Source: an uncultured bacterium | GTDB taxonomy: Bacteria > Patescibacteriota > JAHJAL01 | Assembly: GCA_938004065.1 (NCBI GenBank) | Contig: CALKWM010000038.1 | Coordinates: 2,466 to 66,465 of the forward strand | Direction: 5' to 3' | Length of the DNA stretch: 64,000 nt | Part shown: positions 46,301 to 64,000 of the stretch, one piece after another | Layout of the letters: each line of letters opens with the position of its first letter | Numbering within the stretch: the first letter of the stretch is position 1 | Notes under the pieces: generated by a model | The model's database searches: none | Seen by the model: only the letters and a program-made list of their open reading frames with translations | Told to the model about the DNA's origin: nothing | Program-made: the position numbers and the translations under genes

Positions 46301-46389
46301 TAATTTAAGTTTGCTAAGTTTGAAAATTGGTATGCTTGATAAGTTTATAATTGATTCTAATCTAATTTAACCATAACTAATAATAAAAA

Positions 46390-48591
46390 GTGAAATTAAA
46401 TAAAAATTATCCCACGTATTATTATCTCGATGTGGCAATGCAGTTTTTCCTGATTTTGGCATTGACGCTGGTACCAATTTACTTTACGACCATGATCCAC
46501 AACTCTTTTACAATCGAGAAACATGTTATTTTCCGCGTCTGTGTACTGCTCATGTTTGCAATCGGCGTGATCAAATATTCATATTTTAGTGCTCGAAAGT
46601 TACCCAAGGTTTTCTGGTTGATGCCTTTGTTTGGTTTGGTGGGAGTACTTTCGACAATTTTTTCGATCAATCCGGCGGTCAGTTTGTGGGGTATTCATCT
46701 GCGGATGGACGGATTGGTAAATATGTTGTTTCTGGTGATGTTTTTTGTGTTGGCATATCTGCAGTTGGATACCAAAACCAAGATAAAACAAGTGATATTG
46801 GCCATCGTGTTGGGTTCGATAATACCGGTTGTCTATGCCATCATGCAAAAAATTGGCGCCGATCCGCTGGAATGGAAAGGGGTAAATGCGGAGGAAAGGG
46901 TGTTTGGCACTACCGGTAACCCGGCTTATCTCGGCGCCTATTTGTTGTTTACCATTCCTCTAACTTGCTATCTGGGAATAAAATACAATTCTCTCAAAAA
47001 ATATTTTTTTTATGTACTTGGTTTGGCTTCAATCTATGTTTTGATCCTGACCTGGACGAGAGCGGCTTATCTGGCTTTGGGATTGGAAATATCAATTTTG
47101 GCTATGGCGTATTTTTGGATGAGCCATAAAAAACGGCTGTTTTATGTTTTTTCGGGACTGATATTGGCGGGAATACTATTTGTCGGGGCGTTAAATGTAA
47201 ATCCCGGCTTGGTAAACACTTTGGGGAACAATCGCTATCTGGAAAGATTGTCGCAACTTACGCAAACTACCGAGGGGACGGGAAAAGACAGGTTGGAAAT
47301 GTGGAAAATTTCGGTTAAAGCGATCGAAGAAAGACCGTTACTGGGTGCCGGTTTGAGTCAGTATATCCAGTATTTCAATAAATACTATCCAAATTACATG
47401 GACGCTCGCCCGGACAAAGACCGTTACAGCAATTATTCTCACAATCTCTGGCTAGATACGGGAGTGGCACATGGATTGGCCGGGATTTTGGTTCTGCTTT
47501 CCATTTATGCCTCTTTTATCTGGTTGGGTCTTAAAAAAATGCGCGCTCAGGAAACTCTGGAGGAAAAATTTTTGTATCTTTCGGTTATAGTAGCGATTTT
47601 GGGCTATCTCACTCAGGCAATGTTCAATATCGAAACAATTATTACCTGGGAATATAGTTTTGGACTGTTGGCAGTATTGCTGGCGATGGTAAATTTAAAC
47701 GAAGAGCAAGAACTGCATTCTAAATCCCCTACCGTCTGGAAACAAATTTTGACGACGGTGCTAGTGGTGGCGGGATTGGTTGGTGTTTATTTTCTCGCAA
47801 TCAATCCTTGGTCGGCGGATAAAAATTATTTCTATGTCAATAGTGCAAATCTGCCGATTGATCAAAAATTGGCACTGGCTCAGGAGGCGGAAATATTTAC
47901 CCCCTATTTTGAATATGCTCCAATCAGGATTGGTGATATCTATGCTTCGCAAATTGATTTAAGCAAAACCCAAGAAGCCACAGATTTATTTACTAATTCG
48001 GTTGAACAAGTGAACAAAGCCCTCGCTATTAACCCGCTTAATTACAAAAACTATATGTCGCTGGCGACCATCTACGGATCGTGGGCAAGGATAGACAATA
48101 CCAAATTGGTACAAGCCGAAGAGCATTTCAAAAAAGCTAAAACGATGAGTCCGAACCGACTGGATTTACATTGGACATGGGGCAATGTTTATCTGGATTT
48201 AAATATGGTGGACAAAGCCCATGAGCAATACGAAGAAGCCCGGAAATTGAATCCGGAAATTGGAGAAACATATTTCAATTTGGCAAAAGTGGCGATTTTG
48301 CAAGGCGAGCAACAACAGGCCGATGAATTTTTGCAAACAGCTTTGGATAAAGGATATGTTTATGAAGAGTTAAAATTTTACCAGGATATGGCACTGATGG
48401 TTTACAAGCAAAGTAATTTTTTACTGGCCGGTTCGTTGGCCGGGCGGGCCAATGAAATATCCGTGTCTGAAATGTCGGCCATGATCGAAATCCAAGCTAA
48501 TTTGGAATTGGATCAAAGCGATGTGGCCGGTTCCTTGTTGAATGAGTATAGCAAACTTGTCCCGGGGTTGGAGGAGAAGTTTCAACAATAA
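46390..48591 (+). CDS. O-antigen ligase/polymerase-like (Wzy_C) membrane protein fused to C-terminal TPR repeats
   Basis: ~12 TM N-terminal region containing LTWTRAAYLALGLE (Wzy_C-like). C-terminal ~250 aa with TPR-like helices (ATIYGSWARIDN..AEEHFKKAKTMSPN..). Confidence 0.65.
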   Translation: MKLNKNYPTYYYLDVAMQFFLILALTLVPIYFTTMIHNSFTIEKHVIFRVCVLLMFAIGVIKYSYFSARKLPKVFWLMPLFGLVGVLSTIFSINPAVSLWGIHLRMDGLVNMLFLVMFFVLAYLQLDTKTKIKQVILAIVLGSIIPVVYAIMQKIGADPLEWKGVNAEERVFGTTGNPAYLGAYLLFTIPLTCYLGIKYNSLKKYFFYVLGLASIYVLILTWTRAAYLALGLEISILAMAYFWMSHKKRLFYVFSGLILAGILFVGALNVNPGLVNTLGNNRYLERLSQLTQTTEGTGKDRLEMWKISVKAIEERPLLGAGLSQYIQYFNKYYPNYMDARPDKDRYSNYSHNLWLDTGVAHGLAGILVLLSIYASFIWLGLKKMRAQETLEEKFLYLSVIVAILGYLTQAMFNIETIITWEYSFGLLAVLLAMVNLNEEQELHSKSPTVWKQILTTVLVVAGLVGVYFLAINPWSADKNYFYVNSANLPIDQKLALAQEAEIFTPYFEYAPIRIGDIYASQIDLSKTQEATDLFTNSVEQVNKALAINPLNYKNYMSLATIYGSWARIDNTKLVQAEEHFKKAKTMSPNRLDLHWTWGNVYLDLNMVDKAHEQYEEARKLNPEIGETYFNLAKVAILQGEQQQADEFLQTALDKGYVYEELKFYQDMALMVYKQSNFLLAGSLAGRANEISVSEMSAMIEIQANLELDQSDVAGSLLNEYSKLVPGLEEKFQQ

Positions 48592-48863: not shown

Positions 48864-51080
48864 ATGAAAAAGTTTTTTGGGTGGGTGGTGGTTTTTGTAC
48901 TTTTAGCGTCGTTATTCATAAATATTCAAGGTGTAAAAGCAGCGACGACTATATTGCATGAGTTTTCAGGAGGAGGGAGTGATGGAGCTAATCCACGCAC
49001 TGGTCTTACTCACTACGACGGTAAACTTTATGGAACAACGTTTAATGGAGGGGATTCAAATGAAGGAACAGTTTTTAGAGTTGATATAGATGGCTCAAAC
49101 TTCACTTTGTTGCATGAATTTGCGGGAGGAGGGAGTGATGGAGCAAAACCTTTTAGTGCTTTGCTAATAGAATCTGGCGTGATTTATGGAACAACCACCA
49201 AAGGAGGTGATAATAATATTGGAACAATATTCTCAATGAATACTAATGGAACAGGATTCACTTTATTGCATGAATTTGCAGGTGGTGCAAATGATGGCCA
49301 AAGTCCACTTGGCTCTTTAATTCTAGATACTGGTGTTCTTTATGGAACAACAGATCGAGGTGGAGACTACAATTATGGAACCATATATTCCATCCAAACA
49401 GATGGAAATAATTTTTCTTTGTTGCATGAGTTCGCGGGATCTCCAAACGAAGGAAGTTACCCTAAGGGCAATTTACTTTATAGTGAAGGAAAGCTATACG
49501 GAACTACAAACAGTGGAGGAAATGCGACAGGATATGGGTATGGATATGGCACAATATTCTCTATCGATACAGATGGAACTAATCACGTACTTTTACACGA
49601 ATTTGGTGGAGGAAATAATGATGGTGCTTATCCATACGGAGGATTAGTTATCGACTCAGGCACGCTTTATGGCTTAACTAATAGTGGAGGCGACAGTGGC
49701 TATGGAACTATTTTTTCGATAGATACCAATGGAACAAATTTTACTCTGTTGCATGAGTTTGCTGGGGGCAATGATGACGGTAATAGTCCTAAAGATTCAT
49801 TATTGTTAAGTAATGGAACATTGTTTGGAACAACATTTTATGGAGGTGAATTTGGAGCTGGTTTTGGCTATGGTACTATTTTCTCAATTGATACTAATGG
49901 TTTGAATTTTGGTTTACTACATGAGTTTGAATCAGGTACAGATGATGGTAGCTGGCCAGAAGGAAATCTAATTCTGGTTTCTAATAATTTTTACTCAACC
50001 ACAAATGCTGGTGGTGACAGCAATTTAGGTACAATTTTTAGTACAGATCTGCCTATATCTTCAGGTCCTACATCAATCAAAAACACGCTAAGCAGTTCCG
50101 CTCCCGGGGAATTGGTGAATATGACTATCGAATACACTCCAGCACTAACAACTGCTGTGACTGATGGATCGGTTAAATTAACCCTCGCTGAAGAATTTGA
50201 TTTTAACGGAATATCAAAAGACGACGTATCTGCCAGTGGTGGAGATGTTACTTGGGATCCTAATGAGATAATAACAGTCGATGGGACAATAATCACAAGA
50301 AATAATAGCTGGGTAGACAGAGTTTACGCGCAGGGAGAAGATAGTATTGTGTTTGGATTTACGGGAGATTTGGACAATACTGGCGGGACAATTACATTTA
50401 CCATCAATGGAGCGACCGCTCCGTTGAATCCCGGTTCAATTGGTTCATATGATTTCAATGTGGGAGTTTTTTCGACCAGCGACGGTACCGGTGCGGCTTT
50501 GGAAGTAAGAGATGGGAGAGTGGCGATTGCCAGTCAAGTAAATGTTACCGCCACCGTTCCATCTACCCTAACTCTAACAATTAATGGAGTGGCAAGTGGA
50601 AACGCGTGTAGTAATAGTGGTAGCAATGCATCAGTTACAACAACATCTTCTACTATTCCATTTGGAATATATACCGGAGCACAAACCAAGATAGCTTGTC
50701 AGACATTAACAGTAAGTACCAATGCTACCAATGGATATATCGTAACTGTCGAACAAGATCAAGATCTAACCAGTGCCGGATCAGATACAATGAAAGCTTT
50801 TTCCGGTACTTATGCCACTCCAACAACTTGGGCAACACCTCCGGGGAGTGGAACGGAATCATTTTTTGGATTTACGACTGATGATACCGGCTACTCCAGT
50901 TTTCAAACAGCTAAATACGCGGGATTTGCGGTGGATAATACTCCATATGCCATCATGACCGGACCGGAACCGGTGGTTGATGAAGAGAATGTAATTTCCT
51001 ATCAATTGGAAGTTACTAACTTGCAAGAAGCGGGTGTTTATAGTAATACTGTAATGTATATTGCGACGGCGATGTTTTAG
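48864..51080 (+). CDS. secreted repeat protein: signal peptide, 8 tandem ~45-aa beta-propeller-like repeats (LLHEFxGGxxDGxxPxxxL....LYGTTxxGG....GTIFSI) resembling choice-of-anchor GloVer-type repeats, plus ~330-aa C-terminal module shared with the 57651-62075 protein
   Basis: Signal peptide MKKFFGWVVVFVLLASLFINIQGVKA. LHEF occurs 8 times at regular spacing. C-terminal module ends ...VMYIATAMF. Confidence 0.7.
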   Translation: MKKFFGWVVVFVLLASLFINIQGVKAATTILHEFSGGGSDGANPRTGLTHYDGKLYGTTFNGGDSNEGTVFRVDIDGSNFTLLHEFAGGGSDGAKPFSALLIESGVIYGTTTKGGDNNIGTIFSMNTNGTGFTLLHEFAGGANDGQSPLGSLILDTGVLYGTTDRGGDYNYGTIYSIQTDGNNFSLLHEFAGSPNEGSYPKGNLLYSEGKLYGTTNSGGNATGYGYGYGTIFSIDTDGTNHVLLHEFGGGNNDGAYPYGGLVIDSGTLYGLTNSGGDSGYGTIFSIDTNGTNFTLLHEFAGGNDDGNSPKDSLLLSNGTLFGTTFYGGEFGAGFGYGTIFSIDTNGLNFGLLHEFESGTDDGSWPEGNLILVSNNFYSTTNAGGDSNLGTIFSTDLPISSGPTSIKNTLSSSAPGELVNMTIEYTPALTTAVTDGSVKLTLAEEFDFNGISKDDVSASGGDVTWDPNEIITVDGTIITRNNSWVDRVYAQGEDSIVFGFTGDLDNTGGTITFTINGATAPLNPGSIGSYDFNVGVFSTSDGTGAALEVRDGRVAIASQVNVTATVPSTLTLTINGVASGNACSNSGSNASVTTTSSTIPFGIYTGAQTKIACQTLTVSTNATNGYIVTVEQDQDLTSAGSDTMKAFSGTYATPTTWATPPGSGTESFFGFTTDDTGYSSFQTAKYAGFAVDNTPYAIMTGPEPVVDEENVISYQLEVTNLQEAGVYSNTVMYIATAMF

Positions 51081-51221
51081 GAAGAAAGTTTAACGAGAAA
51101 GTTTTAAGTGACAAGTACAAAGTATCAAGAGAAGCACAGGAACGAAGGATAACAAACTAGTACAAACATATCCAAACTTTCCAAACATTATTAGCTACAC
51201 TAAAAAAACAGACTTGAAAAC

Positions 51222-51623
51222 TTGAATAGATATTATTTAAGGTTTTTTGGTATGTTTAAAATGGTATGTTTGTCTAGAAAAATGTATATGAAAAAAATTT
51301 ATCACAAAAATTTATCAAAAGACAAGTGGTTTGAAATGACTTTGGCGGAACAGATGGCAAACATCGGTAGCGAGTATTTCAGAGCGAAAAACTGGAAACA
51401 AAAAGACAATAAAAAATATTTCGAACCGGCATTTGATCGAATGCTGGAGCTTTTAAACTTAAGTCTGTCTGATAAAAGATGGAAATCGAGTCAACTTAAA
51501 GAATTGGCCAGATTGAAAGAATTTGTTGTTCGTTATTTGTTTAATGAAGAAAGTTTTCGAAATGATAAAGATTTTGATAGTTATTTTATGCAATTTAGTT
51601 TACTTGCAAGATCTAATAGATAA
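51222..51623 (+). CDS. hypothetical protein
   Basis: 133-aa ORF followed by hairpin terminators at 51626-51700. Confidence 0.3.
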   Translation: MNRYYLRFFGMFKMVCLSRKMYMKKIYHKNLSKDKWFEMTLAEQMANIGSEYFRAKNWKQKDNKKYFEPAFDRMLELLNLSLSDKRWKSSQLKELARLKEFVVRYLFNEESFRNDKDFDSYFMQFSLLARSNR

Positions 51624-51657
51624 AAAATCCCAATCGAGAATGAAGGGATTTTTACAA

Positions 51658-51700
51658 ATGCGGTTATCCTAAGGGGGAGTTGGATAACCGCATTTTTTAT
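51658..51700. terminator. bidirectional rho-independent terminator (gcggttatcc..ggataaccgc + T-run)
   Basis: 10-bp perfect stem flanked by A/T runs between convergent genes. Confidence 0.65.
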
Positions 51701-51714
51701 ATTAGCATTTTTTT

Positions 51715-52071
51715 TCAAAAAGAGCAATCAGGAAGTAATTTTTTTATCGCAGATTTAATTTTTTCTGTCGAGAAAGGTTCGAGAAAGATAATTTCTCTTT
51801 TGAATCCATTGGAAGAAATTATGTTTCCGGTTTTATGATATCCTTCATCGACAAACAGAACAGGAATATTTTTAAAGTAAGCAGGATTTATGATATTACA
51901 ATAACTACTAGGAATTATGAGAAATGAATATCTTCCTTCTTCTTCAAAAATATCCTGATAATTTTCCGACAAATCGACACTAATTTTCAGACAATTACTG
52001 ATGTAATTGACTAAAAAATGCCGACTTTTATCGCTTAAACCAACCGCGAGAGCTTGGTGCGCCATGGACAT
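51715..52071 (-). CDS. degenerate receiver-like (REC) domain protein
   Basis: PVLFVDEG segment and size similar to CheY-like domains, but key residues unclear. Confidence 0.3.
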   Translation of the reverse strand: MSMAHQALAVGLSDKSRHFLVNYISNCLKISVDLSENYQDIFEEEGRYSFLIIPSSYCNIINPAYFKNIPVLFVDEGYHKTGNIISSNGFKREIIFLEPFSTEKIKSAIKKLLPDCSF

Positions 52072-52172
52072 TCCACCTTTCTTGTTTTTAAAGTTTTAAG
52101 GGCATGTGGTGATTGTAACGAATAAATACACACCCGGTCAAGAAAAAAATGCCCACCAATGTTTGGGGCATT

Positions 52173-52533
52173 TTAACAATTATTTTTAATTTTTTTTAAT
52201 ATTTGATCTATCGTAAAGGGTTTTTGAATTACTTCTACTTCTTTATTTATAATTGCAGAAGTAATGTATCCAGTTACGATAAATATTTTTTTTATCAAAC
52301 CGGTATCTATTTTTTTCAAAACAGATTCGCCACTGATCCCACTTAAACACAGATCGCAAAAAACTATGCAACCGGGATTGTCATTTATAATTTCGATAGC
52401 TTTTTGGCCATCAGAGCAAAATATGGCTTCTATATCGTCCCTGTCGACTTTCTCCATGATCATTTTATAGATGTCAATTATAACATCTTCGTCTTCGATG
52501 AAAATGACTTTTTTTATATTGTTACCAGACATT
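52173..52533 (-). CDS. single-domain response regulator (CheY-like receiver)
   Basis: Start MSGNNIKKVIFIEDEDV (SD ggaagg upstream). Acidic pocket and conserved T/K positions. Confidence 0.6.
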
Positions 52534-52996
52534 TCCCACTTCCTTCCAAAGATGAAATCTTTATGATCAAGTCGACCACAATTTTTTTGATTTTGTGACC
52601 AATCAAGTATCCTTTGTCCAGTGACACTATCCGATCGTAAAAAGCTCGTTGTTGAACAAAATCTGACATAATATTGGAACTCTCGGAACAATACAGTACC
52701 AGGACGGGTAGTTCTTGGCCCTTGGTTTGTGCAAAAATACTGTACAACAGTTGAGTTCCGGTTGGTTCCGTTCCCTTGGGCATTTCCTGATCGGATACCA
52801 CCAAACAAATACTATCCAGATTCTCCAGAATATATTTAATGGCTTTCTTGGGATCGCTGTATGTTTTTATCGTGATATTAACAAAACTTACTTCCGGAAT
52901 TGTCTGGAATAATTCTCTAATCGTTGCTTGAAAGAAACATTTGTTGATTCCGAGTAAATCAACATCGTCATCGATCAGAATTATCTGATTTTTCAT
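52514..52996 (-). CDS. single-domain response regulator (CheY-like receiver)
   Basis: MKNQIILIDDDVD...LVVSDQEMP... Confidence 0.6.
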   Translation of the reverse strand: MKNQIILIDDDVDLLGINKCFFQATIRELFQTIPEVSFVNITIKTYSDPKKAIKYILENLDSICLVVSDQEMPKGTEPTGTQLLYSIFAQTKGQELPVLVLYCSESSNIMSDFVQQRAFYDRIVSLDKGYLIGHKIKKIVVDLIIKISSLEGSGKCLVTI

Positions 52997-53093
52997 TTTT
53001 TAACCTCCCTAAAAATTTTAAAGTACAAAAAAAAATTAATTTAATGTTTAATATTAAATTAATATTTTCTTAAGCTAGAATTAATATACCGGT

Positions 53094-54692
53094 TTAGTTG
53101 AAAGTTATCAAGTTTTGACCGGTCATATCTGAACCTTTGGGTAAGCCCAACAGATAGAGCATGGTTGGAGCGATATCCCTAAGCTCGGTTGAGTAATCGG
53201 ATGGGATATTGGAATTGGGTATCAACCGGTTTTGTGAATCACAGACAATCAACGGCACCGGATTGCGGGTGTGCTCCGGATCGGGTCGGCCGGTTTCGAT
53301 ATCTACCATTTGCTCGGCATTGCCGTGATCGGCGGTAACGATTAGGATTCCGTTCATTTTTTTTACCATCTCCCAGACCTCTCCCAGACATTCATCACTG
53401 GCTTCGCATCCTTCAATCGTGGCCGAGAGATCGCCGGTGTGGCCGGTCATATCGGGATTGGCAAAGTTACAGATGTAGCTATCGTATTTGTTGTTTTTTA
53501 GAGAATTTAGCAGAGTTTTGGTCACTTTATCAATACTCATACGGGGAACGAGATCGTATGTTTTGTCTTCGATCGAGGGAATAAGCGCGCGATATTCGTT
53601 GGGAAAAGGATTTTCCCGACCGCCGTTGATAAAGAAGGTAACATGTGGGTATTTTTGTGATTCGGCGATATGAAATTGGCTGAGGCCATTGTTGGAAATT
53701 ACTTCCGCCAAACACTCTTCTTTGGCCTCAATTTTGAAGGCGATATTTGGTGGTAGATTGGGGGAATAATAGGCCATGGAACAGAAATATATCGCTGGCC
53801 ATTTTTGGCGTTTAAAACCGTTGAAATCAGCATTGCAGAGAGCTTTGGAAATCTGGCGAGTACGGTCGGCGCGAAAATTGGCGAAGATCATTACATCCTG
53901 ATCGTCGATAGTGGCAATGGGTTTTTGATCGGCATCGACAATGACAGAGGGGACGATGTATTCATCTGTAACGTCACGGGCGTAACTCATAGTAAAAACT
54001 TCTTCCGGATTTTGATAAAATTCGCCTCGGCCCAGCACCATGGCGTTGTAAGTGCGTTCGGTACGCTCATAACGTTTGTTACGGTCCATGGCAAAATAAC
54101 GGCCGGTGATAGTGGCAATCTCCCCCACTCCCAATTCTGTTAGTTTCTCCAGTAAACGGTGAACCTGCTCAAAACCTTCTCGTTGCGGAGCATCGCGTCC
54201 ATCGGAAAAACCGTGGATATAGACTTTGGATAGTCCTTGCTCTTTGGCTAATTTACATAAATTGTAAACATGATCGATGGAACCGTGAACTTGAGCGCCA
54301 ACTGAAAGCATACCCATGATATGCAGTTTGGAATTGCGTTGTTTGGCGGTTTGCATGGCTTTGATAAGTTCGGGGTTTTGAAAAAATGTACCGTCTTCGA
54401 TAGATTTGTTGATCAGATATAGGTGCTGATGAACAATTCGGCCGGCACCGATGGCAACATGGCCAACCTCGGAGTTTCCAGGCATCATGGTCGGCAACCC
54501 GACGGCACCTTCAGCGGCTTTGAGAGTAAAATGCGGATGGGTGGTCCATAGATGATCAAAATTGGGTGTGTCGCCCATGGTAATGGCGTTGCCACCCCAG
54601 GCGTGGGCATATCCCCAACCGTCGAGGATAAGCAAAACGACTGGCGGTTTGTCGGTTAATTTGGTTTTTTTGAAAAGGTCAAATAGTCCCAT
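53094..54692 (-). CDS. gpmI: 2,3-bisphosphoglycerate-independent phosphoglycerate mutase
   Basis: LLILDGWG, NSEVGHVAIGAGR and downstream metal-binding motifs of iPGM. 532 aa. Confidence 0.95.
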   Translation of the reverse strand: MGLFDLFKKTKLTDKPPVVLLILDGWGYAHAWGGNAITMGDTPNFDHLWTTHPHFTLKAAEGAVGLPTMMPGNSEVGHVAIGAGRIVHQHLYLINKSIEDGTFFQNPELIKAMQTAKQRNSKLHIMGMLSVGAQVHGSIDHVYNLCKLAKEQGLSKVYIHGFSDGRDAPQREGFEQVHRLLEKLTELGVGEIATITGRYFAMDRNKRYERTERTYNAMVLGRGEFYQNPEEVFTMSYARDVTDEYIVPSVIVDADQKPIATIDDQDVMIFANFRADRTRQISKALCNADFNGFKRQKWPAIYFCSMAYYSPNLPPNIAFKIEAKEECLAEVISNNGLSQFHIAESQKYPHVTFFINGGRENPFPNEYRALIPSIEDKTYDLVPRMSIDKVTKTLLNSLKNNKYDSYICNFANPDMTGHTGDLSATIEGCEASDECLGEVWEMVKKMNGILIVTADHGNAEQMVDIETGRPDPEHTRNPVPLIVCDSQNRLIPNSNIPSDYSTELRDIAPTMLYLLGLPKGSDMTGQNLITFN

Positions 54693-54889
54693 TGGTGGAA
54701 GAATAAGAAGTAAGAAATAAGAAGTAAGAAATAAGATTTGTATTTATTGGCTTATGTTTATTGTAGTGGAAAATTGGTAAATGGTTAAATTGTCAAAAAA
54801 GAACAAAATAAGAAATCAAAAAATACCGTGGTTGTAAGATGTCAGTTTATTATAGTATTGTAGTTTATTTGATTAACTTAACTAACAAA

Positions 54890-57523
54890 CTAAATATTAA
54901 AATTTTTGTTTTCATAGTTATTCATCCAAATTACATCCATATTTTGTTGATGGTAATTATTGAAATATGAAAATCTTTTTGGTTCTGGGAAAATATATTT
55001 CTCATTAATAAGAGCAATTCTTTCTTTGAGAGCTTCTTCAAAAGCACCACCGGTGCGATTGGTTCTTATTTGAGGATTTTCTGAAGTGAGAATTTTATCG
55101 ATACCGTTATCGGTGGCAAAAATCGATAGTTGTTTTATCAGTTCGTCAAAGAGTAGTTTTTCATCGATTTTAAAGAGAAATGTGCTGCAAGGATTTAGTG
55201 AGGCGGTAAGAATTTTTTGGCTATTTTCCTCGTAGTAATGGAGCAACACTAATCCTTGACAATTTTTTGTTTGCGAGTCATGTAAAGCCATTTGGAAATA
55301 ATTTGACATTTCCCACATATTTTCCGGTCTTTTTTCATTTCCTTCGTATGATAGAGGGTTGTCTCCGGATACGCATACACCGCCAACAGACCGAGTATGG
55401 GCGGAGGTATGATTTTTGGTGATATAACAATCGAGTTTTTTTAGTTGAGTAACTCGATCACTTGTAGTTTCTATGGGTTGAAATTTGGCAATTTCCTGAT
55501 CGATAAAATTTATCTCTTCCAAAAATATATCGTGAAATAATTGGGTTAAATAATTTGCAAAAAGATGCTGATCATAAGATTTATTGCCAATATTTTTTTC
55601 GAGGTCCAGATATTCTGTCAAATTTAATTCCCCCAAATGGATTGAAGCGGGATCGATTTTTTCCTTTTTTAGAATTTCCAGGGCTTTGGCAGCTTTGTTT
55701 TGTTCATTGGAAATAATACCGGCAATTGCTTTGCCTTTTTGGTCCAGGATGATTTCTTTGGTCTCATTCGTTTTAAAAAGTTTAGTTTTTTTGTTTTTTA
55801 ATACGTTTTCGATTTTCACCAATACATGAACACCGCCAATCTTGTCAATTTGCATTTTGTTTATTTTGTCCTGCATTAGTATTTCTTGTTCTTGACCGGA
55901 TATTTTCTGGTAGAAATGAGTTAAAATCTTTTCGAATACTTTATTTTCGAGGGCTTTGGTAACGATTTCTCTCTGGGTATCTTTGATTTTATCGGTGAAA
56001 AACTCTCTTATTTCCAATAGATAAAAATATTCCGGACTGGTTGATTGGTTTACTCTGTCTCGTGTGCCTTGCAAGTACTCCTCAATCACAGGAAAATGGG
56101 CTATTTGGTATTCGATAATGATTTGTTTTATTTCCGACGTGGTAATATCGGGATTCAGTTGAGCTTCCAGTAGAAGGACCAGAATCTTATCTTCATTGGT
56201 ACATAGTTTATCTTGAGAAATATTAAATTTATTAAAAATCGAATCAATTTTATGGCTAAACAAGGTTAGCTTTTCGTCGGAATTAAATTTGGTAATCTCA
56301 GATACGGGGTGTTTGATCTGGTATTCCAAAGTGGATAATTTATTTTTATCAAGTTTAACATTTTCTTTGACAACCATTTTATTACCAGGCATCAATTTGA
56401 TAGGATAATTATCTCTGATTGAAAATATTGATAAATCGGCTGTGCGGTCCGGGCAACTTTCATTGCTTTTAAAGCTGCTATATTGTGAATTTTGAGGATA
56501 GAGAGCTTTGATGATATCTTGGTAGTATTTTTCGTCGATAATGTTGGGATCTTGTTTGGAAGGAGAGGTAAATTTTTCTTTTTTCTGGTTAATGTCGTCA
56601 ATAAAACCCTGGAGAAGAATGGGGTCGTTCTGTTTTCTCAGATTGTGATAATCTTTTAGAACTTCACCATAGACAACTCCCGTATCTTGGTGACAGGATA
56701 GTAAACTGTATTCTGTTTCTAGATATTTAACCGCTTTTTTGTCGAATTTTGACAAATGCAACATAATTTCATGAGGTTCTCTTTCTTGCATTATTACTTG
56801 AAGTGACTCAATACCCAGATTTTTAAATTTGGGATAGTATTCAAGGTTAAAAATATTTAATGAGGTGTGCCGGGAGATTTTGATGGCAACACTATCTGAT
56901 AACCAGGGCATTTTTTGCAGTAAGTTAGTTACCAAAAAATATTTATCAATCCCATCGATCAGACCGGCAATGTAGTCATTGATTTTGACAATTAATTGGT
57001 GAGACAATTTTTGCATTTGATCAGCATTCAATACATGAGTAATATACATTATGCCTTCATTGTTTTTGTCACTTTCGAGAATTTGGTTGGCAATGTAGTT
57101 TATATCACAGCCCGAAAGATCATCGGCAATTTTTAAAAGATAATTTATTTTGTTAGCTGCAAGTAATTTATCAACTACAAGATGATGAAATACAGGGTCG
57201 ATTTCTTTGGCAAAACATGCCAAATGCAGAATCAAACCTTTTTCATACATTTTTTCAATAATTGTTGTTGGATCAGGGATATTAAATTGGTCTAAATGTC
57301 TGGCCAACTCACTTCCCAAGCCCGAGTCAATGAGGTGGAGGGCGTATTTCGTATGCATATTTTGGGGCAATTCGGAAACAAAAATTGAGTCAAAATCTTC
57401 AGAATTTTCGATTTTTTCCAGCCATTTTTGCTGATTGATTTTGTCTTGAAAAGCCGAATTTTCGTCGGGTAATTTTTTCGAATCTGATTCAGAAGGTCTA
57501 TATTGGTCAAAATTCTGGTTCAT
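54890..57523 (-). CDS. large cytoplasmic hypothetical protein (877 aa, predominantly alpha-helical, Cys/His-containing C-terminal region)
   Basis: Long uninterrupted ORF, no signal peptide. No recognisable domain. C-terminal segment CYITKNHTSAHTRSVGGVCVSGD... Confidence 0.5.
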   Translation of the reverse strand: MNQNFDQYRPSESDSKKLPDENSAFQDKINQQKWLEKIENSEDFDSIFVSELPQNMHTKYALHLIDSGLGSELARHLDQFNIPDPTTIIEKMYEKGLILHLACFAKEIDPVFHHLVVDKLLAANKINYLLKIADDLSGCDINYIANQILESDKNNEGIMYITHVLNADQMQKLSHQLIVKINDYIAGLIDGIDKYFLVTNLLQKMPWLSDSVAIKISRHTSLNIFNLEYYPKFKNLGIESLQVIMQEREPHEIMLHLSKFDKKAVKYLETEYSLLSCHQDTGVVYGEVLKDYHNLRKQNDPILLQGFIDDINQKKEKFTSPSKQDPNIIDEKYYQDIIKALYPQNSQYSSFKSNESCPDRTADLSIFSIRDNYPIKLMPGNKMVVKENVKLDKNKLSTLEYQIKHPVSEITKFNSDEKLTLFSHKIDSIFNKFNISQDKLCTNEDKILVLLLEAQLNPDITTSEIKQIIIEYQIAHFPVIEEYLQGTRDRVNQSTSPEYFYLLEIREFFTDKIKDTQREIVTKALENKVFEKILTHFYQKISGQEQEILMQDKINKMQIDKIGGVHVLVKIENVLKNKKTKLFKTNETKEIILDQKGKAIAGIISNEQNKAAKALEILKKEKIDPASIHLGELNLTEYLDLEKNIGNKSYDQHLFANYLTQLFHDIFLEEINFIDQEIAKFQPIETTSDRVTQLKKLDCYITKNHTSAHTRSVGGVCVSGDNPLSYEGNEKRPENMWEMSNYFQMALHDSQTKNCQGLVLLHYYEENSQKILTASLNPCSTFLFKIDEKLLFDELIKQLSIFATDNGIDKILTSENPQIRTNRTGGAFEEALKERIALINEKYIFPEPKRFSYFNNYHQQNMDVIWMNNYENKNFNI

Positions 57524-57650
57524 TTTAGGTAAGGGGGATTAATTTTCCAATTTTCAAATAAAATAATTTAAAATGAAAAAAATGTTGAATTGTTATTTTC
57601 GTTCTGCGACTTTACTTTATACTTGATACTTGAAACTTGTGACTTTTTCG

Positions 57651-60600
57651 TTAGAAGGTCGGCGTCGCGATATAGGTGATAGTGGTGGAATAGGTGCCGG
57701 GTGATTGGAATTTGGTTAGATTCAATCGATAACCGATACGAGTGATCTGGTCGGCTACGGGGCCGGAGTCATAGGCCACTTCTTGCGGTAGTGTGTCGAA
57801 AGCGGCCCATTTATCAGAAACGAAACGATCTACCGGTGAAGTAAAGAGCGAATCATCGGAAGTTGTATAACCGAAATACCCTTCGGTACCGGAGCCGGGA
57901 GGAGCGCTCCAAGTGGCCGGTGAAGAGTTGGAATGAGGGAAGTTTGAAATAGTGCCTGTTGCAGAAGTCATGGTCTGATCGTATTCGATAGTAACTACGT
58001 AACCGTCGGTAGCGTTGGTGGAAACTTGCAAATCATGAGCTTGGATACGGTCATCGGCATCGGAGTATAGACCAAAATCAACAGCGCCGGGGGAAGTGGT
58101 GGCAGAGGTGATAGTTGCACCGTTGACGTTGCCGGTGGCAACCGGTAAAATGTCGAAAGTTAGATATGATGGTACGGTGGCGGTTACGATAACAACGTGG
58201 TTTAAAAATACCATACCGTCCCCTATCTCAACCGGCTCACCAAAGCCACTCTGATTGTCATACAGGTTGTAACTCACCGAGAAAGAACCGGTACTGGATG
58301 GATTGGTCGGTTCGTTGAGGGCACCGATCGTAAATGATAGCTGGCCATCGGAATTGTCGATAGTGCCGGTAAATGGGAAGACGATAGCATCTTCACCGGC
58401 GGCATAACCGTGTTCAATCCACCATGCCCAGTGGTTGGCAACGATGGTACCGTCGTCGTAGATTATTTCATCGTTTGTCCAGGTAACATCACCACCACTG
58501 GCCGAGACGTCGTCTTTGGTTAGTTGTGAAAGATCATAATCATTGTGTAGTCGAATTTTGATACTACCATTGGAGATGGCGGTGGTAGTTAAATCAAGTG
58601 TGAACGTAACCAAGATATTTCCGGATTTTCCCGGATCGGAAGTTTCAAGCAATGCCCTCATACCTCCACCGGCTAAATTTTCATCAACTTCGTAATCGAT
58701 TTGATATGAATTGGTGGATTTGTTGCCGGCTACGTCCATGCAACGCATAAATACTGACTTGAAGCCGTCGGAATAATGGGCAACCGTACAATTGGTGGTG
58801 CTTTCACAAGTGCCGGTCATAGAGTCGTAAGCAACATTGGAATTACTCCATTTGCAGGCGACGGCGTCGGTGTCGGCAGTGTAAACGATCAAGGCCACGC
58901 CATCTTCGACGATATCAACATAGGGTGCCTGGGTGTCACCAGCGACGGAGCTAACGGTTAAAACATTGGGGACTATGCTGTCTATGGTGTAATTGACTTC
59001 ATAACTACTGGTCATCTTGTTGCCGGCTTCGTCACGACATCTAATATAAACAGTTTTGGCACCTTGACCGGAAAGATTGGCGGTACAATTGCCGGCCGAA
59101 GTACAAGTGTTGGGCATACTATCGTACGCCTGATCTACGAAAGACCATTTGCACTCGGTTGGGTCGCCACTGGTGTTGTATAGTATCTGAGTGGAACTAT
59201 CGTCGGTAGTGTCATAATAAGGCGAAGTGGTGTCGCCGGCAATTGATGTGATTGATGTGATTGACGGTGGAGTAGCATCAATAGTGTAATTTAGAACATA
59301 TGATGTTGGAGAATCCAGTTCGTTGGCATCACGGCAACGCATATAGACAGTTTTGGCGGTTTCGCCGGTAAGATCCAGATTACAATTGGAGGTATCGGTA
59401 CAAGTATTGGCCATAGCGCCGTAAGTCAAATCGGTTTCGTCCCATTTGCAACTGACGGCATCGGCCGAAGCGGTATAAATCACGTCTGTTGAGCCATCGT
59501 CAGTAGTGTCGTAATAAGTAGTAGTGGTATCACCGGCGACAGAGGTAATGGAAATAACTTCCGGCGGGGTGGAATCGATGGTGTAGTTGAGAGTGTAAGA
59601 AGATGAAGCCGCATTGTCAGCGCCGTCGATACATCGCAGGTAAACCGTATGGGCGGATTCGCCGGTCAGATTGAGTGTACAATGAGAGGAGTCAGTACAA
59701 CTATTGACCATAGCGCCGTAAGTTAAATCGGTTTCGTCCCATTTGCATCCGGTAACGCCGGTTAAATTGTCTGAAGAAGTAAATACGACCTGGGTATTAC
59801 CATCATCGGTAGTATCGACATAAGGGGCAGAAGTATCGCCAGCCACTGAAGTAATGGAATCAATGGTCGGTGCGGTTTTGTCGTATCTGGTCTCGTAGTT
59901 GTATTCATCGCCCCAGATGTCAGCCGAAGAGAACGGCCGAACATGCATGAAATGTATGCCTTCGGTAAATAAATAATTGTCAATATTGGAGTCGAGAGAA
60001 AGTTTTCGTAAATATTCATTGGATATTTCAGAAGGACTTAGAGCTTGATCAAAAATTTTCACCTCGTCTATGTCTCCATTAAATCTTCTCAGTACACTGC
60101 TCCATGAGATATAAATATCGCCATTGGAATTTTTGATGTTACCGGTAAAAGGATTTGAGTCTTCAAGCTGACCATTAATATAAAGTGATACATTACTACC
60201 GTCATAAACACCAACCACATGCGTCCAGACTCCATTATTTATTGTTGATGAAGAAATGGCATCGCCATAAGAGCCGGAAGTATTTTGGACATAGAACCGC
60301 CAATAGGGATTATACATTTGAAGATAAAAATCATCTCCTCCGCTATGCGGATCAGTACAAACCAGAGCATCATAACTGCTCACTGCTGCATTCCTTTTGA
60401 CCCAGGCCGATACCGTGATGGCATTTGACGGATGCAGTTCAATCGAGGAAGGTATTGTGACGTGATCATTTACGCCATCAAATGTTCTGGCATTACCCAA
60501 TTGGCCGGTGGTAACAGTCGATTCACTTAAAGTTCCATGGTTTCCTTCCCCACTGTGATCAAACGCTGTCGTAGTATTATCATTTTCAAAATTCCACCAG

Positions 60601-62075
60601 CCGACCAGATCGTCGTTGGTGATAGCGGGCACACTTGAGTCATTTTCCAGATAATAGTAATAGTAAAGCGGTTCGCTGATCTGATTGGAATAAGTTGATG
60701 TGCTCCAGTCGGAAATATTGTCCAAGGCGTCTTTGGCGCGGACAAAGTAATAGTAAGTGTTTTCATCCAGACTGGTGAATGTATATTCCGGATCAGTCAG
60801 CCACCCTGATGGAGTACAACCGGTAGTGGAATCCGTGTCGTTAATACAAAATTGATATTGGACAGTATCAACTCCGTCATCAATCACACTGGTGGAAGAG
60901 ACTGTGTTCTCTGTACCGGAAGTGTATTCCGGTTCGGCATTCATGGTCGGCACGGGTGGCGGGGTATTGTCTTGTTCGTATTCATAGTCTGATGAGGTGA
61001 GGTAACAATTGTTGGCATCGTCACAAGTTATGTATTTGAAATGACTGGTAATGGAAATGGAATGATCCGCCCAGGTGGGAGACGATTGGTCGGGCTCACT
61101 GGTGTCGTCAGTGTAACGAATTATAGTTCCTCCGGTTCCCGGCGTACAAGCAACAGCCAAATCGTCTTTGAAGTAAGTACCACTGACCGGGGTACAGGTA
61201 GGAGAGGCAGTGGGACCGGATTTATCGATTTTGAATTGGAGTGATTGAATACTTTGTTCATTGCCAGCATTGTCCAGTGAATAATAACGGAAATAATTTG
61301 TACCTTCAGTTGAAAAAGCTTGTGGTGATAAGTATTCGGTAGTGGGTGTACATGTATTGGTTTGATCAGTACAGAAATAAGTTGTATCAATGCCGGAAAA
61401 ATTATCCACTGGTACAGCAGTGATAGTGATATCGGTGGTGTACCAGTTATCACTACCCAACGTTCCTGCGGTAACTGAGGCGGAGGTAGTCGGGTCGGTT
61501 ACGTCTTTGTCGATACCAAACGATCGGGTTATGCTTTCATAATAGCCATCGTGGGCGCGAACATAGATGGTAGTCGCACCGTCGGCCGGGTAGTTTGTCC
61601 AAGAGGAAACATCGGGTGTGCCGACCATCGTCAAATCATCCACCGGACTGAGTTCGGTATCTATTGTATGCCAGTTAATTTCGTCAAAAGACCCTTCACA
61701 AGTAATCGTCTGATCCGATTCCGTGTCCGTCACACCCAGACACTGAATATTGAAAGCGGTTTGATTGAGTGAATTTATATAGCTTTCCGAGGTGGTAGCG
61801 CTATCCAGCAAAACTTCGTTGTCCGACTGGATGAAGCCGGATTCCAGATCGTAAGTTGTATTGCTGTCATGACTGCCGGCAAACGGTTCGCCAAAACTGT
61901 CGGTCAAAAAATAGTTGGTTGATGTGCTATCATCTGCACCGGCATTATTGGTTACATCATGTACAATCTCATAATTGGCACTGTTCATAGCCATGGCCGA
62001 ATAGCTAACCAAACCGGTCATCCAGACGGAGACAAGCATTACCAGAAATTTATTATTGATTAGTTTGGTTAACAT
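57651..62075 (-). CDS. giant secreted/surface protein: signal anchor, Ig/CHB_HEX_C-like DNAGN segments, LamG-like jellyroll domain, four ~96-aa Cys-containing tandem repeats, and a ~330-aa C-terminal module shared with 48864-51080
   Basis: N-terminal MLTKLINNKFLVMLVSVWMTGLVSYSAMA. LamG-like region (..NHGTLSES..FDGVNDHVTIPSS..VSAWVKR..GDIDEVKIFDQALS). Four repeats ..SITSVAGDT..YYDTTDDGST..CKW.ETDLTYGAM.N.CTD.S.C.L.LTGE.A.TVY.RC.D.A.N... C-terminus ...ITYIATPTF. Confidence 0.75.
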   Translation of the reverse strand: MLTKLINNKFLVMLVSVWMTGLVSYSAMAMNSANYEIVHDVTNNAGADDSTSTNYFLTDSFGEPFAGSHDSNTTYDLESGFIQSDNEVLLDSATTSESYINSLNQTAFNIQCLGVTDTESDQTITCEGSFDEINWHTIDTELSPVDDLTMVGTPDVSSWTNYPADGATTIYVRAHDGYYESITRSFGIDKDVTDPTTSASVTAGTLGSDNWYTTDITITAVPVDNFSGIDTTYFCTDQTNTCTPTTEYLSPQAFSTEGTNYFRYYSLDNAGNEQSIQSLQFKIDKSGPTASPTCTPVSGTYFKDDLAVACTPGTGGTIIRYTDDTSEPDQSSPTWADHSISITSHFKYITCDDANNCYLTSSDYEYEQDNTPPPVPTMNAEPEYTSGTENTVSSTSVIDDGVDTVQYQFCINDTDSTTGCTPSGWLTDPEYTFTSLDENTYYYFVRAKDALDNISDWSTSTYSNQISEPLYYYYYLENDSSVPAITNDDLVGWWNFENDNTTTAFDHSGEGNHGTLSESTVTTGQLGNARTFDGVNDHVTIPSSIELHPSNAITVSAWVKRNAAVSSYDALVCTDPHSGGDDFYLQMYNPYWRFYVQNTSGSYGDAISSSTINNGVWTHVVGVYDGSNVSLYINGQLEDSNPFTGNIKNSNGDIYISWSSVLRRFNGDIDEVKIFDQALSPSEISNEYLRKLSLDSNIDNYLFTEGIHFMHVRPFSSADIWGDEYNYETRYDKTAPTIDSITSVAGDTSAPYVDTTDDGNTQVVFTSSDNLTGVTGCKWDETDLTYGAMVNSCTDSSHCTLNLTGESAHTVYLRCIDGADNAASSSYTLNYTIDSTPPEVISITSVAGDTTTTYYDTTDDGSTDVIYTASADAVSCKWDETDLTYGAMANTCTDTSNCNLDLTGETAKTVYMRCRDANELDSPTSYVLNYTIDATPPSITSITSIAGDTTSPYYDTTDDSSTQILYNTSGDPTECKWSFVDQAYDSMPNTCTSAGNCTANLSGQGAKTVYIRCRDEAGNKMTSSYEVNYTIDSIVPNVLTVSSVAGDTQAPYVDIVEDGVALIVYTADTDAVACKWSNSNVAYDSMTGTCESTTNCTVAHYSDGFKSVFMRCMDVAGNKSTNSYQIDYEVDENLAGGGMRALLETSDPGKSGNILVTFTLDLTTTAISNGSIKIRLHNDYDLSQLTKDDVSASGGDVTWTNDEIIYDDGTIVANHWAWWIEHGYAAGEDAIVFPFTGTIDNSDGQLSFTIGALNEPTNPSSTGSFSVSYNLYDNQSGFGEPVEIGDGMVFLNHVVIVTATVPSYLTFDILPVATGNVNGATITSATTSPGAVDFGLYSDADDRIQAHDLQVSTNATDGYVVTIEYDQTMTSATGTISNFPHSNSSPATWSAPPGSGTEGYFGYTTSDDSLFTSPVDRFVSDKWAAFDTLPQEVAYDSGPVADQITRIGYRLNLTKFQSPGTYSTTITYIATPTF

Positions 62076-62111: not shown

Positions 62112-62894
62112 TTAACTACAATAATTTCGAATACAGCGGAAATATCGCAAACTACTATCGGTTTTGGTCACGGTACTTGATCCGCCAAAACTGAAATTGG
62201 TCGTGAAGGCGGTATTGACATCATTTTGATACGAACTCCAATAATCATTGGGTTGAAAACCACCTCCAGCAGAAACGCGATTGGTAAACAATGTACCAAG
62301 TTGAGTTTGTGCCGGTAAGAACCAGTCGCTATATCCATATTTGATTAAATTGTAACAATGATCGGCAGCCGGATTGGTCGGCGGATTATTGTTATATAAC
62401 CAGGTAGTGAGAGTTTCACCATCAGTAGGATCGCCGCCTGGCCATTCATTGTAGCCAACCGCACTAGCCCATTGTTTGGTCACCAGATCAATACCGCTAC
62501 AAGCCGGTTCATTTGTAGAGTTGGCACAACCGCTTGGCATTGCTACCATACAATTGGCGTATTTATAACCACCACCGCAGTTGGTACCGACGGCATCACC
62601 GGCAGTACATTCACAAGTTGGACCGGTACAGGTCGGACCACATGTAACATTGGCCAATCCACCGGCAGTACATTTATCATTGAAAGCGTTCCATTCCAAA
62701 TCAGTGTTGTTTGGCACAAAGTAGTCATACGAACTGTTATTGACTACTTGTCGGCTACGTTCGGTAATTACCGTGGTGGTCCCGTGGTTGGCACGATAAT
62801 AAGTAGCGGCATAGGCGATCAGAATCGGAATCGTAATCAAACAAAGCAGACTTAAAGCAACTATTAAAAATGTTTTTGTTTTGAACTTGAACAT
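62112..62894 (-). CDS. secreted Cys-rich protein with DUF1566 (Lcl C-terminal)-like domain
   Basis: N-terminal signal anchor. Cys-rich segment TCGPTCTGPTCECT. C-terminal DWFLPAQTQLGTLF...NDYWSS...YFRCIRN resembles DUF1566. Confidence 0.5.
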   Translation of the reverse strand: MFKFKTKTFLIVALSLLCLITIPILIAYAATYYRANHGTTTVITERSRQVVNNSSYDYFVPNNTDLEWNAFNDKCTAGGLANVTCGPTCTGPTCECTAGDAVGTNCGGGYKYANCMVAMPSGCANSTNEPACSGIDLVTKQWASAVGYNEWPGGDPTDGETLTTWLYNNNPPTNPAADHCYNLIKYGYSDWFLPAQTQLGTLFTNRVSAGGGFQPNDYWSSYQNDVNTAFTTNFSFGGSSTVTKTDSSLRYFRCIRNYCS

Positions 62895-62917
62895 AACTTA
62901 TTTTTTATTTTTTATGT

Positions 62918-63985
62918 TTATTTATTTTTCAATGTTTCAACTTCTTGTTTCAATTGATCAATTTGGGTTTGTTGTTCTTGAATCGCTTTCAACAATACCG
63001 CTGTCATGTTGCCGTATTCCATCCCTTTCATGCCAGTGCTTGGATTGGTAGTTACAAGCTCCGGATAATACTTCTCAACATCTTGGGCGATAAAACCTAT
63101 TTCCTTGTCGCCGCCGGTTTTCCAATTAAAGGTAACCGGTTGAATTTGTTTAACTTTTTCTAAAGTATTATCAGCCAATGGTTGAATATTGGTTTTCAAT
63201 CGTTGGTCGGAACTATAGATGAAAGAAGCAGCTTGCACGTCACCATTAACATCTAGTTCTTGTCCTGGATTTGTCATCCCAATCCCAACCATGCCGCCAT
63301 TGGGATTCAATGTGAGTGCAGTAGTTGTGACGCCGTTATAAACCGATTGAATCCAACCATAATACGGACTTGCGCCATTATTGTATCCCATCGCCAAACG
63401 ATATTGGTTTCCTCCACCAGTAACCAACAAAGAACCAAGTTCACCTGACGGTGAGGTGCTGGCTCCAGCAATATGAGTAGTAGTCAATGGTCCTGTAGTG
63501 CCAATCCCGAAATTACCGCCAGATGGATTAATAGTAACGGGCACAGAAGCTGCGTCATTAAGCATACCTTGTAGCCAGGTAGAACCATTGGACAAAGTTC
63601 CCATCGCTAAGCCATAGCCGTTATCAGATCCACGTAAATACAGTGATGAATTAGCTACACTGACACTAGAGGGAACAGTTCTGAGAATGCTAACTTTGGA
63701 AGATAATGTTCCAGTAGCACCGATACCAACATTCCCGGAAGAATCAACCATTATGTCGTCTTTGGAATTTGTACGACCTATACCAAAACTATTAGTGGCT
63801 CCGCTCCAACGATTACCGATATACCAATCGCTAGCGGTATCTTTGAAATGTATATTTTGGTCATAACTGGCACCACCTGTACTCTCGATTAATATTGAAG
63901 CATCTGCAGAACTTCTATTGAGGTGCAAACCGGCCGCTGGCGTAACTGTTCCTATACCAACGTTACCATTCCATCTCCAAGTCAT
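62918..63985 (-). CDS. tail-fibre-like Gly-rich beta-helical protein with C-terminal peptidase S74 intramolecular-chaperone domain (5' end probably beyond window)
   Basis: SDQRLKTNIQPLADNTLEKV...GFIAQDVEKYYPELV...MEYGNMTAVLLKAIQEQQ matches the S74 chaperone-of-endosialidase domain. Reading frame open to the window edge. Confidence 0.65.
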   Translation of the reverse strand: MTWRWNGNVGIGTVTPAAGLHLNRSSADASILIESTGGASYDQNIHFKDTASDWYIGNRWSGATNSFGIGRTNSKDDIMVDSSGNVGIGATGTLSSKVSILRTVPSSVSVANSSLYLRGSDNGYGLAMGTLSNGSTWLQGMLNDAASVPVTINPSGGNFGIGTTGPLTTTHIAGASTSPSGELGSLLVTGGGNQYRLAMGYNNGASPYYGWIQSVYNGVTTTALTLNPNGGMVGIGMTNPGQELDVNGDVQAASFIYSSDQRLKTNIQPLADNTLEKVKQIQPVTFNWKTGGDKEIGFIAQDVEKYYPELVTTNPSTGMKGMEYGNMTAVLLKAIQEQQTQIDQLKQEVETLKNK

Positions 63986-64000
63986 TAGATTAATACCTTG

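Follow-up and report, generated by a model that had tools for sequence, protein, structure and literature searches.

Two large predicted surface proteins of a Patescibacteria contig end in what is very probably a Pam-type pilin module

The Pam pilus is a chaperone-assisted, usher-less, donor-strand-exchange pilus of ultra-small bacteria of the candidate phyla radiation (CPR), described in 2026 (bioRxiv 10.64898/2026.03.03.709456, below the Pam preprint). Electron cryomicroscopy (cryo-EM) of filaments from Ca. Mycosynbacter amalyticus, a member of the CPR, identified PamA and PamB, each of which contains a Sec signal followed by an N-terminal β-sandwich of nine strands, one linker strand, and a truncated, immunoglobulin (Ig)-like C-terminal domain into which the neighboring subunit donates its linker. 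Conservation among the Pam pilins is highest in this donated strand and in the site that binds it. Assembly factors are proposed in the same work: PamC and PamD as PapD/FimC-like chaperones that carry a transmembrane helix at the C-terminus, PamT as a tip subunit of one domain that lacks a linker, and PamR as a membrane anchor. How the filaments recognize the surface of the host was not known to the authors. Here, we describe two genes, ORF A and ORF B (open reading frames, ORFs), within a stretch of 64,000 nucleotides (the window) from an uncultured member of the Patescibacteria (contig CALKWM010000038.1, positions 2,466 to 66,465). Each encodes a large predicted surface protein whose C-terminal portion is very probably a Pam-type pilin, preceded by a large passenger.

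In chaperone-usher pili, tip adhesins as a rule have two domains, a lectin at the N-terminus and a pilin domain at the C-terminus. Adhesins of this kind (FimH, PapG, CupB6, CsuE) resemble the proteins considered here in joining an N-terminal receptor-binding domain to a C-terminal, incomplete Ig-like pilin domain, which is completed by a neighbor's strand, and these pili also use PapD-fold chaperones. A second comparison is with the large WxL proteins and their partner WxLIP, encoded by the WxL/Csc clusters of Enterococcus and Lactobacillus (PMC10599100; PDB 9i25, 9i1y). The published model has the WxL sandwich completed by a strand of WxLIP (PMC10599100). Peptidoglycan is the presumed ligand of the WxL proteins, which are not known to polymerize. 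TasA fibers and archaeal bundling pili are comparable donor-strand-complemented fibers of monoderms.

The earlier note on this DNA, made from its letters alone, had claimed that ORFs A and B share a homologous C-terminal module on otherwise unrelated proteins. This is borne out by BLASTP, which aligns residues 405-738 of ORF A with residues 1139-1474 of ORF B (43% identity, 62% positives, 341 columns, E 7e-73). All of the motifs that had been listed, GS(V/I)K, DVSASGGDVTW, GEDxIVF, VTATVPSxLT, STNATxGY, PPGSGTE, FG(F/Y)TT, and YIATxxF, lie within this alignment, which reaches the final residue on both sides (YIATAMF / YIATPTF). The module spans a little more than had been given (limits at ~50090 and ~58650): 50064-51077 in ORF A and 57654-58673 in ORF B. 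The N-terminal parts are indeed unrelated, consisting of GloVer repeats in ORF A versus LamG, OmpL47-type, and Cys-repeat regions in ORF B. A search of the window for further carriers (tblastn with both modules) yields these two copies only, and profile searches of ORFs of at least 60 amino acids (aa) agree. A recent duplication of the modules can be ruled out, because they share only 43% aa identity and each has closer relatives elsewhere. ORF A, whose protein is also present in public collections as P0177, is organized as follows:

48864..51080, plus strand: ORF A, 738 aa, intact; signal peptide, GloVer passenger, and probable Pam-type pilin module; stop codon included
48864..48941, plus strand: Sec-type signal peptide, aa 1-26, ending ...IQGVKA and followed by A; judged by eye
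48942..50048, plus strand: passenger of seven GloVer repeats, aa 27-395 (TIGR03803, 258 bits, E 1.8e-78, 7 stretches)
50064..50528, plus strand: pilin N-terminal domain, a β-sandwich, aa 401-555; ten strands in the AlphaFold2 model; weakly conserved
50529..50591, plus strand: linker, putative donor strand, aa 556-576, ASQVNVTATVPSTLTLTINGV
50592..51077, plus strand: pilin C-terminal domain, Ig-like, aa 577-738, ending YIATAMF; putative acceptor domain

ORF B, on the opposite strand, contains:

57651..62075, minus strand: ORF B, 1474 aa, intact; signal peptide, multi-domain passenger, and probable Pam-type pilin module; stop codon included
61989..62075, minus strand: signal peptide, aa 1-29, ending ...SYSAMA and followed by M; judged by eye
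61818..61988, minus strand: PamT-like N-terminal motif, aa 30-86, three SxNYx(I/L)-type units
61227..61433, minus strand: OmpL47-type beta-barrel domain, aa 215-283 (NF047446, 50.1 bits, cut-off 40)
60021..60479, minus strand: LamG / concanavalin-A-like lectin domain, aa 533-685 (PF13385 Laminin_G_3, 114 bits, E 7.8e-33)
58683..59876, minus strand: aa 734-1131, a tandem array of four ~99-aa repeats, each containing four Cys
58203..58673, minus strand: pilin N-terminal domain, aa 1135-1291, from BLASTP with ORF A
58140..58202, minus strand: linker, putative donor strand, aa 1292-1312, NHVVIVTATVPSYLTFDILPV
57654..58139, minus strand: pilin C-terminal domain, aa 1313-1474, ending YIATPTF

Pfam contains no match for the module, either with the full proteins (E <= 0.01) or with 12 C-terminal domains (E <= 10). 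In NCBIfam, the module matches NF058581 (CPR_Pam_pilin_C, "Pam pilus system pilin subunit"), over profile positions 2-148 of 148 in ORF A (27.5 bits, E 2.7e-6) and 3-148 of 148 in ORF B (33.6 bits, E 3.7e-8). Nine of ten tested homologues also match the full NF058581 profile over their last ~148 aa; for these together with ORFs A and B, E ranges from 1e-3 to 6e-9, and every score lies under 55 bits. A Saccharibacteria pilin (L015, 7185-8309) passes the curated cut-off, with 56.2 bits versus 55. When the family alignment of the window module (A1) is compared with an alignment of this pilin and seven relatives (A4, eight Saccharibacteria pilins in all), hhalign aligns the two at a probability of 100% and E 6.9e-41 over 333 columns that span the N-terminal domain, the linker, and the C-terminal domain. 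The module is thus homologous to the Pam pilins along its length, and it is very probably a Pam-type pilin itself. Judged by these profile comparisons, it is a divergent clade of the known Pam pilin family that has been missed by the curated cut-offs. The module had not been recognized as a named domain; it is very probably a complete two-domain pilin of the Pam family, and this makes it known rather than novel by the criterion set in the earlier note.

The module also exists on its own. Searched against 5.8 billion proteins, the module of ORF A has 115 first-round homologues, in all of which the match reaches the last residue of the protein. About 50 of these, 360-390 aa in length, consist of a signal peptide and the module alone, the match beginning at residue ~28-42. 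Other homologues of the module are 460-495 aa long, and a third group (547-591 aa) contains only its second half (module residues 155-338, up to 76% identity), with a propeller-like repeat region in place of the first half. When the family profile is searched against 1.84 billion cluster representatives (50% clustering), it finds 5,575 representatives at E <= 1e-3 and 1,078 at E <= 1e-30. Almost all of the 5,575 carry a Patescibacteria label. The close relatives of the module mostly fall under the NCBIfam cut-off.

The named homologues, and most of the 80 loci obtained when GTDB genomes are scanned with an alignment of 12 C-terminal domain sequences, belong to the Patescibacteria (Saccharibacteria, Microgenomates groups, Parcubacteria, and others); CPR restriction is a feature that the module shares with PamA, PamB, and PamE. 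About two dozen metagenome-assembled genomes (MAGs), many with typical operons for pilins, PamT-like proteins, and chaperones, carry non-CPR labels: Pseudomonadales or Gammaproteobacteria, and in single records Clostridia, Acidimicrobiales, and Vitreimonas. The loci with non-CPR labels are:

L016, L020, L023, L029, L030, L033, L038-L041, L044-L046, L049, L056, L057, L061-L064, L066, L069, L073, L076-L078, L080, L083

These MAGs are probably mislabeled or contain mis-binned CPR contigs; if the labels are true, the family is not specific to the CPR.

Structure prediction, which the earlier note had suggested, gives an all-beta model of two domains with a predicted local distance difference test score (pLDDT) of 90.5 (AlphaFold2 with a 79-sequence alignment). 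Ten strands, one of which DSSP assigns to 3 residues only, form the N-terminal domain (module residues 5-155), where pLDDT is about 90 except in a loop at 74-90. The linker (residues 156-168), which corresponds to the strand donated by PamA and PamB, is modeled at a pLDDT of about 91 without an intramolecular strand partner, and eight strands at residues 169-336 form the C-terminal domain. In ORF A this domain includes the pair Cys582/Cys612. Conservation follows the same division. The mean top-residue frequency per column of A1 is 0.31 in the N-terminal domain, 0.68 in the linker (VTATVPSTLT), 0.66-0.72 in the STNATxGY core, and 0.64-0.67 in the last strand, so that the linker, with the consensus VxVTATVxSxLTFTI, is the most conserved 10-residue block outside the core of the C-terminal domain. 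A best-conserved linker and C-terminal domain, like the homology of the full-length profiles, is what PamA, PamB, and PamE have in common with the module. Upstream of the passengers, both ORFs open with a Sec-type signal that runs from basic to hydrophobic to A-x-A type (by eye).

The family is linked to chaperone genes. In 63 of 83 related loci, a gene for a chaperone-like protein of 306-380 aa, which has a signal peptide and a transmembrane helix at its C-terminus, lies no more than 400 nt downstream of a pilin gene, often in 2-3 copies. One such protein, of 329 aa (L003, 11172-12161), adjoins the stand-alone homologue P0020. The AlphaFold2 model of the chaperone-like protein (pLDDT 90) consists of two β-sandwich domains and a transmembrane helix. 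Foldseek matches it best to WxLIP of E. faecium (9i25_C, 5.9e-13), followed by CfaA, CsuC, Caf1M, FimC, EcpB, and SafB; the profile of the family, searched against PDB sequences, matches EfmWxLIP1 best (E 1.4e-4), and one family member passes the cut-off of Pfam PF06030 (WxLIP_PGBD). NCBIfam has no match for the chaperone-like proteins. They are homologues of the Firmicute WxLIP (DUF916-DUF3324-TM), and the family fits the description of PamC and PamD; adjacent PapD-like chaperones with a C-terminal transmembrane helix are thus a further likeness between the related loci and the Pam system. The partner of this family is a membrane-anchored, PapD/WxLIP-like chaperone, rather than a sortase-, exosortase-, or usher-like protein of the kind that the earlier note had proposed to look for. 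The same related loci also contain proteins of 236-293 aa that match the C-terminal domain only, lack the linker, and open with SSNYxI...SxxYxL...GYxVKAGFQY; by their sequence these are PamT-like. The 20 loci without an adjacent chaperone gene include all of the passenger-fused and giant proteins. In related genomes (JBMORM01, JAHJAL01, JAEAMF01), orphan fused pilins occur together with a separate core pilin-chaperone operon.

Fusion of the module to a passenger is recurrent: among the best 150 representatives, about 20 have lengths of 640-3817 aa and carry the module at the extreme C-terminus, and giants that carry it are encoded in loci L013, L031, L034, and L043. As passengers they have folds of the binding type, namely propeller repeats (GloVer, DUF5122, and DUF5050-like), LamG, and a Kre9-like Ig domain. 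The GloVer passenger of ORF A is probably a β-propeller-like binding domain. P0178 contains the signal peptide of ORF A and a module that is 76% identical to that of ORF A, together with a DUF5122 propeller instead of the GloVer repeats; therefore, passengers have been exchanged on a conserved module. ORF B has orthologues in P0313 (54% identity, full length), in the giant of L013 (61% over 747 aa), and in P0012 (96%, a truncated gene call).

ORFs A and B are, on balance, probably Pam-type pilins with large binding passengers, that is, adhesin subunits joined to filaments by donor-strand exchange. For the narrower proposition that the fused proteins are polymerized into pili as adhesins, we lean only modestly in favor. 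Both proteins would be exported via Sec, and a membrane-anchored, PapD/WxLIP-like chaperone would cap the C-terminal domain before assembly. By analogy with PamA and PamB, the linker would insert into the incomplete C-terminal domain of the more distal subunit, after which the subunit's own C-terminal domain would accept the linker of the next one. The filament would be built by a core pilin-chaperone operon elsewhere in the genome, and the passenger would be displayed on this Pam-type filament as an adhesin. The homology to Pam pilins, the domain architecture, the pattern of conservation, the linkage to chaperone genes across the family, and the repeated fusion to binding domains are observed, whereas donor-strand exchange within the window clade, incorporation of the fused proteins into filaments, and a role in adhesion are inferred. 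Because the fused proteins retain both the conserved linker and the N-terminal domain, we favor an in-line or sub-tip position over a strict tip position. With respect to the options for a shared anchoring, sorting, or assembly cassette that had been raised at the outset, an assembly module for incorporation into pili fits best, and the sortase, exosortase, or secretion signals do not fit. The new part is the fusion of large binding domains to the pilin unit, away from the operon, an architecture that is undescribed in the Pam preprint, whose text includes neither "adhesin" nor "fusion" (bioRxiv 10.64898/2026.03.03.709456). The window proteins differ from the Pam pilins in having N-terminal passengers of 375 and 1105 aa.

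Several observations weigh against this assignment to Pam-type filaments. The NF058581 scores of both ORFs fall under the curated cut-off of 55 bits. Searches of PDB sequences yield no match, whether they start from one module sequence or from profiles of the full length and of the C-terminal domain, and Foldseek of the module finds generic Ig-like matches only. The window contains no chaperone homologue (tblastn; HMM E > 1), stand-alone pilin, or PamR-like anchor, and nor do the 10 kb upstream of ORF B; this lack of a nearby chaperone or core operon is another difference from the Pam pilins. Pam filaments have been seen by cryo-EM, whereas the window clade is known from genes alone. The C-terminal domain of ORF B, unlike that of ORF A with its Cys pair, has no Cys. 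Finally, in-line packing might be hindered sterically by a passenger of 400-1100 aa attached to the N-terminal domain.

The large size of the passengers is also an argument for the main rival explanation, in which ORFs A and B are not pilus subunits at all. In this explanation, a strand of the membrane-anchored, WxLIP-like protein would permanently complete the C-terminal domain of each protein, which would remain at the surface as a singly tethered adhesin. Large passengers fit more easily on single tethered molecules, and such tethering agrees with the homology of the partner family to WxLIP (PF06030; 9i25_C, 5.9e-13; PDB sequence E 1.4e-4) and with the model in which a WxLIP strand completes the WxL sandwich (PMC10599100). 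However, the homologous, stand-alone PamA and PamB form filaments by cryo-EM (bioRxiv 10.64898/2026.03.03.709456), and a purely tethered protein would have no need for the N-terminal domain and conserved linker that the fused proteins keep and in which the module differs from the WxL proteins. In addition, none of 12 C-terminal domains matches the Pfam WxL family (PF13731) at E <= 10, the C-terminal-domain profile matches no PDB chain by sequence, and the C-terminal domain contains one conserved Trp only, rather than a dual W-x-L motif. We consider tethering unlikely, although it is the best of the alternatives.

A second alternative retains the pilus and restricts the fused proteins to its end: ORF B, and perhaps ORF A, would be a strict tip adhesin that is present only at the distal tip, like FimH or PapG, and nucleates assembly. 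Two-domain adhesins usually occupy this position in chaperone-usher pili, CupB6 and FimH are among the weak Foldseek matches of the module, and ORF B and P0313 open with the motif of the PamT-like tip proteins. In ORF B, this portion matches NF058579 (CPR_pilus_PamT) over profile positions 9-102 of 241 (E 3.9e-7). However, these 94 of 241 positions include the signal peptide, the score is 29.7 bits against a cut-off of 240, and ORF A does not have the motif. PamT is a single C-terminal-type domain without a linker strand, whereas ORFs A and B and all of their giant relatives keep both the linker and the N-terminal domain; thus, ORF B is not a PamT and shares only the SxNY motif with it. The tip adhesins of chaperone-usher pili likewise have no donor strand of their own, whereas the module retains one. 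Those pili differ further in having an usher and an outer membrane, which are absent here, in that the chaperone here is membrane-anchored, and in that their donor strand is an N-terminal extension, whereas here it is an internal linker; no sequence homology between the module and chaperone-usher adhesins was found. An exclusive tip position is therefore somewhat less probable still than tethering.

A third alternative, for which the terminal aromatic residue and the conserved C-terminal strand speak, makes the Y-I-A-T-x-x-F tail a beta-barrel signal of the outer membrane or a sorting signal of the sortase/exosortase type. This idea is effectively refuted: the F ends the last, highly conserved strand of a confidently predicted Ig-like domain; the last 30 residues of ORFs A and B are polar β-strand sequence that contains neither an LPXTG nor a PEP motif and forms neither a hydrophobic helix nor a basic tail; the conserved unit is ~340 aa and also occurs as a free-standing protein; the relatives are monoderm Patescibacteria; and the conserved neighbor is a chaperone of the PapD/WxLIP-like kind rather than a sortase, an exosortase, or a part of the Bam machinery.

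A broader relationship may also be considered. Pam pili and the WxL/WxLIP clusters of Firmicutes could be two branches of an ancient, usher-less, chaperone-assisted donor-strand system of monoderms, in which the C-terminal incomplete-sandwich module would serve as a universal plug by which interchangeable host-binding domains are mounted at the cell surface. ORFs A and B would then correspond, in the CPR, to the large WxL proteins and would be the adhesins by which Pam pili recognize the host. A common system is supported by the homology of the chaperones to WxLIP and is weakened by the lack of a sequence match between the pilin C-terminal domain and WxL; the proposal is tentative, and we would not yet bet on it. 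WxL is not mentioned in the Pam preprint (bioRxiv 10.64898/2026.03.03.709456).

The surroundings of the two ORFs contain other genes of note:

46390..48591, plus strand: Wzy_C (O-antigen-ligase family) and TPR membrane protein, directly upstream of ORF A (PF04932, 82 bits)
54890-57523, minus strand: 877-aa ORF directly downstream of ORF B, without a signal peptide
62112-64000, minus strand: co-directional cluster of surface-protein genes upstream of ORF B; also L084 1-9964

A Bac_transf sugar transferase and a Wzy_C-TPR protein adjoin pilin-module genes in three related genomes (window 44673-48591; L001 4806-8507; L013 7527-11317), and L001/L002 and L013 repeat the Wzy_C-TPR neighborhood of ORF A beside their own pilin-module genes. 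The pilin O-oligosaccharyltransferases PilO and PglL are Wzy_C enzymes. The Wzy_C-TPR protein could therefore be a pilin glycosylation enzyme, although its membership in the system is uncertain and the synteny may reflect only shared ancestry. The Pam preprint reports an unexplained modification on PamA Ser356 (bioRxiv 10.64898/2026.03.03.709456).

The triple SxNYx(I/L) motif that follows the signal peptide of ORF B is also present in the PamT-like small proteins and in an FN3-containing pilin (L015, 9419-10513); the motif could act as a cap, in chaperone recognition, or in tip specification. The ~99-aa Cys repeat of ORF B (ITSVAGDTxxPYxDTTDDG...C.W...C....C...C) is matched by no Pfam or NCBIfam model. 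An 873-aa membrane protein, encoded downstream of a core pilin-chaperone pair (L003, 12263-14884), contains it once (44-52% identity), and the repeat appears to be a mobile domain associated with the pilus system. The 877-aa ORF downstream of ORF B was considered as a counterpart of this 873-aa protein, but the two are unrelated; the ORF has no Pfam or NCBIfam match, and L013 lacks it at the syntenic position.

Upstream of ORF B lie genes for a 260-aa, Lcl_C-like secreted protein, then a Peptidase_S74 (tail-fiber/endosialidase chaperone) protein, whose gene crosses the end of the window and which in full is 687 aa with a signal peptide, and then a multi-LamG giant of 3514 aa, past the window end, that does not contain the pilin module. 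A tail-fiber-like neighbor is also noted in the Pam preprint (bioRxiv 10.64898/2026.03.03.709456). The G+C content across ORF B is 0.44-0.475 (window 58001-62000), compared with about 0.33-0.40 in most of the window; this may result from a composition rich in Thr, Ser, Gly, and Asp or from foreign origin. Elsewhere in the window, two small paralogous ORFs on the minus strand (84 aa, 21631-21885; 98 aa, 26080-26376) open with MKN.YYVYIL.N....LYIGV, and we take them to resemble GIY-YIG-type small proteins.

With 5,575 representatives at 50% clustering, the pilin family to which the module is assigned far exceeds what curated models detect, and the WxLIP-homologous chaperones link two systems that have been treated separately (bioRxiv 10.64898/2026.03.03.709456; PMC10599100). 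Passenger swapping on a conserved module, as seen in P0178 versus ORF A and in a dozen different giants, provides a sequence handle for the prediction of host range. For episymbiotic CPR bacteria, proteins that combine a Pam-type pilin with lectin- or propeller-like domains are direct candidates for the host-binding subunits.

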